Assembly (NCBI RefSeq): GCF_054482525.1
Contig: NZ_CM137006.1
Direction: 5' to 3' (one strand)
DNA length: 64,000 bases
Shown here: positions 26,615 to 27,410 of the stretch, in pieces
Layout of the letters: each line of letters opens with the position of its first letter
Position numbering within the stretch: the first letter of the stretch is position 1
Position numbers and translations under genes: made by a program
The notes under the pieces: generated by a model
The model's input: the letters and a program-made list of their open reading frames with translations, nothing else
What the model was told of the DNA's origin: nothing
Database searches by the model: none

Positions 26615-27410
26615 ACCTAATATCCTTATATCCAGAAGTGGAGAGGTGCAAGATAAATCAAAACACCATAATTACTGTTTGCAGAATAATTCCTTTCTGC
26701 CGGTCCGAAATGTGATCGTGGAGTCAATTCTGACGATGATCTGAAATAAGAATAACGTCTGAACGGGTATAAGAAAATGCTTAAATCATCAAGTTTATAT
26801 ATTTTTACATTTCATTGATGAAATCAATGTAACTGCAATGAATTTTAATGATAGTGCTTTTTGTATCTTGTTGATATTAATCAATGAATTTGAATTCATG
26901 ATGAAGTGATGATTTTATAAAACGTTTTTTCATTTTTGCGAGATGGCTCTCATTATACGTGTTCTGTTAATTAATGAGCACAGTGATAATTAATGACGAA
27001 ATGAATGACGCGCTTTTTCCACATCTTTGAGTTGCGGTTATTACACCATTTCAAAAACTCAACGCCAGGTAATGCGGCCTATTGACTGGTTAAAAAGAAG
27101 ACATCCCGCATGGGTACCAAAGACAACAAGGATTTCCAGGCTAATCTTATGGATTAATCTGCTGCGCGCTCGGTGATTTGTCTGACAAATAAGCTTTTCC
27201 TTATGTCTTTTCCCGCTAAATTTATGCACGTTCTCACTGTAATTCTGCGATGTGATATTGCTCTCCTATGGAGAATTAATTTCTCGCTAAAACTATGTCA
27301 ACACGGTCACTTATCTTTTAGTTAAAAGGTAATGCTTTGTTTTCCGATTAATTTAACGAATTTCATTCGTTTTTGCCCTACACAAAACGACACTAAAGCT
27401 GGAGAGAACC

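Follow-up and report, generated by a model that had tools for sequence, protein, structure and literature searches.

The long ftnB-araF intergenic region of Escherichia coli: two known control regions and the probable scar of a lost DJ-1/PfpI gene

The ftnB-araF intergenic region

In Escherichia coli, the ferritin-family gene ftnB and the gene araF, of the arabinose transporter araFGH, are transcribed divergently and are separated by 796 bp of DNA to which no feature is assigned in the annotations of MG1655, PCN033 and the eight further RefSeq strains that we inspected. We analysed this gap within a window of 64,000 nucleotides, by which we mean the whole stretch of DNA examined; positions are counted along that window. 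Going by the PCN033 annotation, the gap is the longest annotation-free interval of the window, with the flhD-uspC interval (781 bp) as the runner-up. A preliminary interpretation of the letters without database searches (hereafter the sequence-only reading) had rightly picked it out as one of the largest non-coding stretches. The gap extends exactly from one gene to the other:

26111-26614, minus strand: ftnB
26615-27410, no strand: the whole ftnB-araF divergent gap, 796 bp, equivalent to 1986129-1986924 of MG1655 (NC_000913.3)
27411-28400, plus strand: araF

MG1655 coordinates are obtained by subtracting the window coordinate from 2013539. The gap is 100% identical to that of E. coli PCN033 and collinear with that of MG1655 at 98.4% identity, and it was found in 5,417 of 5,426 complete E. 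coli genomes, in one copy each. Its GC content is 35.2%, against 50.2% for the window, and reaches a minimum of 25.8% at 26780-27000. The sequence-only reading had described the entire region as extremely AT-rich, which is true of the core (26% GC) and not of the gap as a whole, whose right third has 39% GC.

When strains, species and genera are compared, the gap very probably falls into three parts: an ftnB control region (about 26615-26830), a drifting middle (about 26831-27100) and an araFGH control region (about 27125-27410). The promoters and binding sites that we propose within these parts are assigned from motif geometry and conservation.

The ftnB control region

The part of the gap nearest to ftnB contains the following features.

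26615-26741, minus strand: ftnB 5' untranslated leader, about 127 nt, placed from the published length and the count of GGA motifs
26749-26754, minus strand: candidate ftnB -10 hexamer TATTCT, placed from the 127-nt leader and the conserved block 26745-26757
26794-26808, minus strand: CpxR-box-like direct repeat GTAAAAATATATAAA, a 9/10 match to GTAAA-N5-GTAAA

According to published work, the ftnB leader measures 127 nt and has four GGA motifs; footprinting placed CsrA at three sites, one of them over the Shine-Dalgarno sequence (Pourciau et al. 2019, PMC6686035). Exactly four GGA motifs occur in the leader of the window (TCC on the plus strand at 26623, 26631, 26691 and 26704), and the one at 26623-26625 sits inside the Shine-Dalgarno sequence AAGGA of ftnB. 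The leader is 100% identical to that of K-12 and 93-99% identical across Escherichia species. It therefore does not differ from the CsrA-repressed K-12 leader (PMC6686035), having the same sequence and the same four GGA motifs, including the one in the Shine-Dalgarno sequence. Binding of CsrA to these motifs would block ftnB translation.

A leader of 127 nt places the transcription start of ftnB near 26741-26742. Other genera have TATGCT at the position of the candidate -10 hexamer. Upstream, the CpxR-like box is a single match where 0.19 would be expected; it is conserved across genera and centred at about -60 from the inferred start. Its presence fits the known membership of ftnB in the Cpx regulon (PMC6686035), and a box near this position would help a weak sigma-70 promoter. 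Published work places ftnB under the control of CsrA, sigma-E and Cpx (PMC6686035). Our search with the sigma-E consensus gave no plausible match upstream of ftnB, and the published sigma-E promoter was not located. With a conserved leader, a candidate -10 hexamer and a CpxR-like box, the expectation that the gap contains the ftnB promoter is in agreement with the literature.

FNR, Fur and H-NS at ftnB

Further from ftnB, at the edge of the drifting middle, lies one additional candidate regulatory site.

26871-26884, no strand: perfect FNR consensus TTGATATTAATCAA (TTGAT-N4-ATCAA), adjoining the palindrome ATGAATTTGAATTCAT

This is the sole exact FNR consensus in the 64-kb window, where 0.11 would be expected. 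Other genera retain the left half, TTGAT; only E. coli has the complete palindrome. Its centre lies about 136.5 bp upstream of the inferred ftnB start, an atypical distance for activation, for which positions such as about -41.5 or -61.5 are usual. FNR is reported to bind unusually far upstream at ftnB, and a centre some 136 bp from the start fits that report, so TTGATATTAATCAA probably corresponds to the reported binding. The site would then serve ftnB from a distance, carried by a middle that is otherwise drifting.

Fur was a further regulator for which the sequence-only reading had suggested a scan. No match to the Fur box (GATAATGATAATCATTATC) at 13/19 positions or better occurs in the gap, with 0.6 expected by chance. 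In keeping with this absence, an E. coli ftnB fusion was reportedly unaffected by Fur (PMC6686035), and Fur is reported to act on ftnB indirectly, or not at all (PMC6686035, PMC3212961). In Salmonella, H-NS binds and represses ftnB (PMC3212961), and by analogy it is likely to bind the AT-rich core in E. coli.

Another ferritin gene offers a comparison. Upstream of ftnA, Fe-Fur is reported to reverse silencing by H-NS (Nandal et al. 2010, cited in PMC6686035). The two regions are alike in that each precedes a ferritin-family gene with long AT-rich DNA, and in that H-NS represses ftnB in Salmonella. They differ in that the ftnB gap has no Fur box at the 13/19 threshold and its distal element is an FNR consensus.

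The araFGH control region

The araF-proximal part of the gap is the orthologue of the characterised K-12 araFGH control region, to which it is 96.5% identical over 27101-27410. The following features were located in it.

27127-27164, minus strand: distal AraC-type site, half-sites CAGCAGATTAATCCATA (9/10) and TAGCCTGGAAATCCTTG (8/10), 21 bp apart
27202-27239, minus strand: proximal AraC-type site, half-sites TAGCGGGAAAAGACATA (8/10) and CAGTGAGAACGTGCATA (7/10), 21 bp apart
27251-27266, no strand: CRP-like site TGTGATATTGCTCTCC (8/10), almost without variation between genera, which follows the proximal AraC pair directly on its downstream side
27288-27293, plus strand: candidate araF promoter A, a weak -10-like TAAAAC preceded by CGC, within the conserved block 27260-27290 and its flank; start near 27300
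27296-27311, no strand: second CRP-like match TGTCAACACGGTCACT (8/10), poorly conserved outside Escherichia
27328-27343, plus strand: candidate araF promoter B, GGTAATGCTTTGTTTT, with -10-like GGTAAT or TAATGC and a start near 27340-27343; alternatively a leader element
27376-27382, plus strand: araF leader block CCCTACA, complementary in sequence to the Spot 42 5' end (GUAGGGUA)
27394-27410, plus strand: araF ribosome-binding region TAAAGCTGGAG, with GGAG at 27401-27404 and the ATG at 27411

The sequence-only reading had expected the araFGH promoter and its regulator sites here and had proposed scans for AraC and CRP. AraC half-sites were modelled as 17 bp (TAGC-N7-TCCATA) and paired in 21-bp phase. 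The gap has just two phased pairs, against 0.009 per shuffle; two never arose together in 1,000 shuffles. Across 31 sequences, drawn from eight genera, no A-box or B-box position varies. Between the boxes, the 7-nt spacer is variable in the half-site 27127-27143 and largely conserved in 27148-27164, and the proximal site as a whole is deeply conserved. The distal site is probably the published araFG2 and the proximal site probably araFG1; these names are reportedly those of a 1992 abstract by Hendrickson.

CRP-like sequences are similarly enriched, with four distinct sites in the gap and 8 matches over both strands where 0.79 would be expected. As the CRP site for araF we prefer 27251-27266 over 27296-27311, since it does not vary between genera and lies right beside the proximal AraC pair. 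The alternative, in which CRP would bind 27296-27311 and 27330-27335 would be the only -10 element, is less favoured. Centred at -41.5, a CRP site at 27251-27266 would put the araF start near 27300. At araFGH, CRP is reported to lie over the -35 region with AraC upstream (PMC2893085), and the AraC pairs followed by CRP at 27251-27266 match this published order of AraC, CRP and polymerase.

Within candidate promoter B, conservation among the 31 sequences is 90% or more at 27330-27335 and 27337-27343. A passage in PMC8489885 gives araF two promoters, sigma-70 and sigma-S, and the second start site is reportedly listed in the supplement of Maciag 2011. The -10-like TAAAAC at 27288-27293 and GGTAATGC at 27328-27335 would fit these two published promoters.

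The leader block CCCTACA at 27376-27382 is likewise conserved in the 31 sequences. A predicted duplex between Spot 42 nt 1-15 and 27367-27382 has an energy of -15.4 kcal/mol, against -11.0 +/- 2.2 for shuffles (p = 0.037); this figure comes from a run restricted to the region, and the unconstrained prediction for Spot 42 and araF was no better than shuffles. The same source on araF promoters refers to repression of araF by a small RNA (PMC8489885), with which a Spot 42-complementary block in the leader is consistent.

Control of araFGH would involve two AraC dimer sites, CRP beside the core promoter, a pair of -10-like blocks and, in the leader, a stretch complementary to Spot 42 together with the ribosome-binding site. 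The K-12 region is reportedly characterised in Hendrickson et al. (1990 and 1992) and Johnson and Schleif (2000). It is the same locus, with CRP beside the core promoter, AraC upstream and two AraC dimer-type sites. The PCN033 sequence differs from it mainly at the variable stretch 27165-27200 between the AraC sites, and the comparison shows no functional difference.

Probable loss of a DJ-1/PfpI gene

The length of the gap is best considered in the light of other genera. FtnB relatives were searched in one genome per species, giving 38 loci; those from Escherichia represent E. coli, E. albertii, E. whittamii and unnamed clades, with E. fergusonii left out. The spacing between ftnB and araF is 789-800 bp in all Escherichia loci. 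It is about 1,390-1,430 bp in those loci of Citrobacter and the Salmonella group that have an intact gene in between, and 1,100-1,290 bp in other genera (Enterobacter, Lelliottia, Huaxiibacter and two mislabelled isolates).

The extra length in other genera is a gene of 185 aa on the araF strand that belongs to the DJ-1/PfpI family (PF01965, E = 2.6e-29) and appears in databases as 'DJ-1/PfpI family protein', 'DJ-1 family glyoxalase III' or 'ThiJ'. It is intact between ftnB and araF (in Salmonella, next to ftnB) in 26 loci from seven genera: Citrobacter, Salmonella, Enterobacter, Lelliottia, Leclercia, Silvania and Huaxiibacter. In four further loci it is partly deleted or frameshifted; the gene has decayed repeatedly in other lineages. 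It is absent from all eight Escherichia loci, and a blastn search for a homolog in the 5,426 E. coli genomes found none. In the accepted phylogeny of the Enterobacteriaceae, the genera that bear the gene include the closest relatives of Escherichia as well as more distant ones. Presence of the gene is therefore taken to be ancestral, and Escherichia to have lost it.

Both spacers that once flanked the gene appear to have been kept. In Citrobacter and Salmonella relatives, the ftnB-DJ-1 spacer measures 489-558 bp and the DJ-1-araF spacer 313-319 bp. Split at 27101, the E. coli gap gives 487 + 309 bp, against 489 + 318 bp in C. koseri. Escherichia gaps were aligned with MAFFT to the two spacers of other genera with the gene removed, and the junction fell at window position 27101 in 9/9 comparison sequences.

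27091-27118, no strand: deletion junction, placed near 27101 by the spacer alignment

Here the DJ-1 gene of other genera aligns with TAAAAAGAAGA through its ribosome-binding region and with CATCCCGCATGGGTACC through its terminator hairpin. In both cases the similarity is weak, so the exact base of the junction can only be inferred.

A DJ-1/PfpI pseudogene within the gap was considered and rejected. In a tblastn search with the Citrobacter DJ-1 protein, the best match to the gap had E = 0.24 and lay on the wrong strand, a result that leaves no residual translated similarity, and there was no DNA match. As no remnant at the protein level, and no clear one in the DNA, survives in E. coli, the deletion is deduced from synteny, lengths and the weak alignment. 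We propose that an Escherichia ancestor would have deleted almost exactly the DJ-1/PfpI reading frame. The two spacers, ftnB-DJ-1 (about 490-560 bp) and DJ-1-araF (about 315 bp), would thereby have become one, and the orphaned DNA upstream of the DJ-1 gene would have drifted since.

The locus has the marks of a gene-loss scar: flanking synteny is conserved, the gene is present in outgroups and both spacers are retained. Enlarged gaps from gene loss are a general phenomenon among enterobacteria, and this one resembles them in that relatives carry the gene, the spacers are kept and the orphaned part drifts towards AT. It is unlike them in having no recognisable pseudogene, the deletion having apparently removed almost only the open reading frame. 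Very probably, then, the gap is a composite regulatory region that owes its unusual length to the loss of a gene and not to the presence of a hidden one.

The AT-rich middle

Between the two control regions lies the part of the gap that remains to be accounted for.

26831-27100, no strand: rapidly drifting, AT-rich spacer; its position is that of the DNA, now orphaned, upstream of the lost DJ-1/PfpI gene

Homology to Citrobacter is detectable by blastn on either side, at 71-74% for 26615-26818 and 77-79% for 27125-27410. With an nhmmer profile built from the ftnB-DJ-1 spacer of Citrobacter/Salmonella, the match can be followed only as far as about 26932 (E = 5e-41), and 26933-27100 has no statistically detectable homolog outside Escherichia. 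Within the genus, E. coli is 91-93% identical to other Escherichia species at 26615-26830 and 83-85% identical at 27101-27410. The corresponding values are 65-70% at 26831-26930 and 57-63% at 26931-27100. For reference, fourfold-degenerate sites of ftnB and araF are 63-72% identical and shuffled controls 50.6 +/- 2%. Since its identity is near the fourfold-degenerate level, the middle of about 270 bp is homologous within the genus and, as judged from these alignments, drifting at about the neutral rate. A similar picture emerges within E. coli, where 10-16% of columns vary among ten strains across 26831-27200, compared with 1-3% in the leaders and the core araF promoter.

The sequence-only reading had drawn attention to palindromic segments near 26890 and to repeated aatgaat/ttaatga motifs, and both are real. 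The repeats are CAATGAATTT(T/G)AAT at 26836 and 26882, TG(T/A)TAATTAATGA at 26965 and 26984, and AAT(T/G)AATGACG at 26988 and 27000. Five perfect palindromes occur in the gap when arms of 7 nt or more and a spacer of no more than 4 nt are required.

26809-26824, no strand: palindrome ATTTCATTGATGAAAT, overlapping CATTGATGAAATCAATG
26813-26829, no strand: palindrome CATTGATGAAATCAATG, overlapping ATTTCATTGATGAAAT
26884-26899, no strand: palindrome ATGAATTTGAATTCAT, 7-2-7, the one quoted in the sequence-only reading
27176-27190, no strand: palindrome ATTTGTCTGACAAAT, 7-1-7, overlapping an 8/10 CRP-like match at 27172-27187
27355-27371: the fifth palindrome

Dinucleotide shuffles contain 0.47 such palindromes and reach five in about 0.3% of cases, an enrichment of about ten times chance. 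Conservation of the individual palindromes is uneven. For the overlapping pair at 26809-26829, the left arm alone is conserved in other Escherichia species, and ATTTGTCTGACAAAT is moderately conserved across genera. The palindrome ATGAATTTGAATTCAT is conserved neither in the nearest clade, Escherichia sp. L003, nor in any other species, and is probably a by-product of AT-rich drift beside the FNR site.

Short islands within the middle, GCTCTCATTAT near 26945, TTAATTAATGA near 26968 and GTGATAATTAA near 26982, are better conserved than their surroundings among Escherichia species, and given these the middle may not be entirely free of function. In two strains IS1 is inserted in the gap, and an IS1-associated deletion runs from it.

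These observations bear on two other views of the middle. According to the first, all 796 bp are required, and the AT-rich middle is no passive scar and acts as a platform for H-NS nucleation or DNA bending that couples or insulates ftnB and araFGH. The repression of ftnB by H-NS in Salmonella (PMC3212961), the FNR consensus within the middle, the enrichment of palindromes, the conserved islands, and a length held at 789-800 bp across Escherichia despite turnover of the sequence would all suit such a platform. Divergence at about the synonymous rate argues against it, as do the lack of a Fur box and the fact that natural isolates tolerate both the IS1 insertion and the IS1-associated deletion. 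On balance we regard a required platform as rather unlikely, yet as the most serious of the competing explanations.

The second view holds that the AT-rich core is foreign DNA brought in by horizontal transfer, or the decayed remains of a mobile element, lodged between ftnB and araF. A GC content down to 26%, the missing homolog of 26933-27100 outside Escherichia and the IS1 insertions in two strains could be cited in its favour. Against this, the spacers of other genera are equally AT-rich (32-39% GC), the middle is collinear and homologous in all Escherichia species (57-70% identity, against 50.6% for shuffles), and the two ancestral spacers together account for the total length. The middle is also single-copy in E. 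coli, with a median of 1 place per genome. There was no match to phage, and matches in a plasmid collection were only to E. coli records of 0.39-4.9 Mb that look chromosomal. A foreign insertion or mobile element is unlikely for these last reasons. Repeat and mobile elements (REP, IS, MITE) were rejected as candidates on the median of 1 place per genome and the absence of terminal repeats. Foreign origin is already largely refuted, and we give it only a minimal chance.

Most likely, the middle that gene loss would have left behind is largely unconstrained AT-rich DNA apart from the FNR site, so far as conservation is a guide.

Small RNAs and small proteins

The size of the gap had led the sequence-only reading to allow for an unannotated small RNA or small open reading frame, and to suggest a search of small RNA databases. 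Neither idea gained ground. An Rfam scan of 24500-28500 at permissive E-values gave only chance-level matches in the gap (mir-33 and AaHKsRNA41), and no Rfam family matches it. A consensus scan for sigma-70-like promoters found 0, with 3.5 expected by chance. The only terminator-like hairpins are two weak ones: the first, with a 5-bp stem, belongs to the araF promoter block, and the second, at 27007-27025, has G-T pairs in its stem. Neither strand of the middle has a folding signal (z-scores of +0.99 and -0.76). Literature searches for any small RNA in the ftnB-araF gap found none.

Open reading frames fare similarly. Each of those within 26795-27325 is broken elsewhere in Escherichia, the nearest clade included, and for several this is so even among E. 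coli strains; the broken frames lose their start or their frame, or gain a stop. Frames that are open everywhere merely overlap the conserved leaders, and one of these, 27332-27427, starts in a -10-like block and is truncated in Citrobacter. Two short frames are intact in 10/10 E. coli strains and not in the nearest clade.

26971-27054, minus strand: open reading frame of 27 aa, TTG start
27005-27085, plus strand: open reading frame of 26 aa, ATG start

At such low divergence, intactness in ten strains is weak evidence.

It could still be argued that the spare 270 bp or so encode a small RNA or small protein that has escaped annotation, possibly expressed from the orphaned DJ-1 promoter. The two intact frames and the short conserved islands would be compatible with this, and AT-rich DNA often fires spurious promoters. 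Set against it are the failure to match Rfam, the deficit of sigma-70-like promoters and of a proper terminator, the folding scores, the near-neutral divergence between species and the disruption of every frame of 26795-27325 in other Escherichia species. Moreover, MG1655 has no annotation in the gap despite recent entries such as azuC/azuR and spfP. We consider such a gene very improbable; as far as these searches of the sequence reach, they give no indication of a hidden gene for an RNA or a small protein. The length of the gap is better explained by loss of the DJ-1/PfpI gene than by an unannotated small RNA or small open reading frame.

A more specific form of the idea can be stated, to which we attach scarcely any likelihood: the orphaned DNA upstream of the lost DJ-1 gene may have stayed active under FNR or H-NS control, making an E. 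coli-specific non-coding RNA or a very young small protein. If so, one candidate would be the 26-aa frame at 27005-27085, and its transcript would run towards the AraC sites, modulating araFGH.

Implications

Both control regions of the gap are already known, being textbook or recently published E. coli biology. To these, the base-level conservation map adds support for two AraC dimer sites and a conserved CRP site, and it locates a perfect FNR consensus. On the practical side, those who search gaps for small RNAs or micro-proteins need expect no conserved one here.

The loss of a DJ-1/PfpI gene that relatives of Escherichia still carry would account for the longest gap of the window. What is new is a minor evolutionary footnote on an otherwise ordinary and largely known regulatory region.

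Variation and conservation within the ftnB-araF intergenic region

Among the E. coli strains aligned, the most polymorphic part of the 796-bp region between ftnB and araF is the stretch at window 27165-27200, which lies between the two AraC-type sites (27127-27164 and 27202-27239). Variable columns make up 15.8% of 27101-27200, and within 27165-27200 K-12 and PCN033 are mismatched at many positions. Both flanking AraC-type sites, unlike the DNA that separates them, are invariant among these strains.

Further to the left, three short islands, GCTCTCATTAT, TTAATTAATGA and GTGATAATTAA (window 26945-26996), are conserved among Escherichia species above the level of the drifting DNA that surrounds them. 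The islands do not look like a Fur box and match no other assignable site. They may bind a protein at a site so far unrecognised, or be what is left of the promoter of the lost DJ-1/PfpI gene, which other enterobacterial genera carry beside ftnB.

The AT-rich core of the region has also received IS1 in two strains:

Window 26900-26908: 9-bp target duplication of an IS1 insertion, strain USDA-ARS-USMARC-51688
Window 26817/26818: start of IS1, strain Ecol_542

In Ecol_542, a deletion extends from this IS1 across araFGH and otsB, ending inside otsA.

Within the araF leader, window 27355-27371 reads AACGAATTTCATTCGTT followed by TTTTG. Together these form a short hairpin, rich in A and U and with a run of U residues, that is found in E. 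coli and is unconserved in other Escherichia species.

Flanking genes

At the ftnB end, E. coli strain 190 (locus L048) has a later annotated ftnB start and a different protein accession. In the alignment an indel shifts the reading frame close to where ftnB begins, at about window 26583-26614, and the change may inactivate the gene in this urinary isolate. The MG1655 annotation places azuR/azuC, a dual-function sRNA and small-protein gene, some 900 bp left of the intergenic region (window ~25538-25696); in a permissive Rfam scan the matches there, to STnc370 and rsmX, were all sub-threshold.

The locus in other genera

A contig labelled 'Chryseobacterium sp. 18061' carries an enterobacterial-type ftnB/DJ-1/araF locus (FtnB identity 62%), and a near-identical locus is present in 'Citrobacter sp. 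18056' (loci L036/L033). The assignment to Chryseobacterium seems to be a labelling error or to stem from contamination.

At two Salmonella loci, L010 (S. enterica subsp. diarizonae) and L013, araF is absent, and an intact DJ-1/PfpI gene adjoins leftover araF promoter DNA. These loci (L010 1618-1827, and also L013) retain sequence with homology to the control region of araF and to the first 17 bases of the gene, the counterpart of window 27178-27296 and 27347-27427. Such retention without the gene itself argues that araFGH was deleted and its promoter left behind as a remnant.

The DJ-1/PfpI gene has itself decayed elsewhere. Three Citrobacter lineages (L008, L015 and L039) have lost part of it, and a frameshift splits it in one Leclercia genome, L. 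adecarboxylata NCTC13032 (L037), where the frameshift could be a sequencing error. Since the gene is broken in these lineages as well, its loss seems, on the sequences compared, to be recurrent and not unique to Escherichia.
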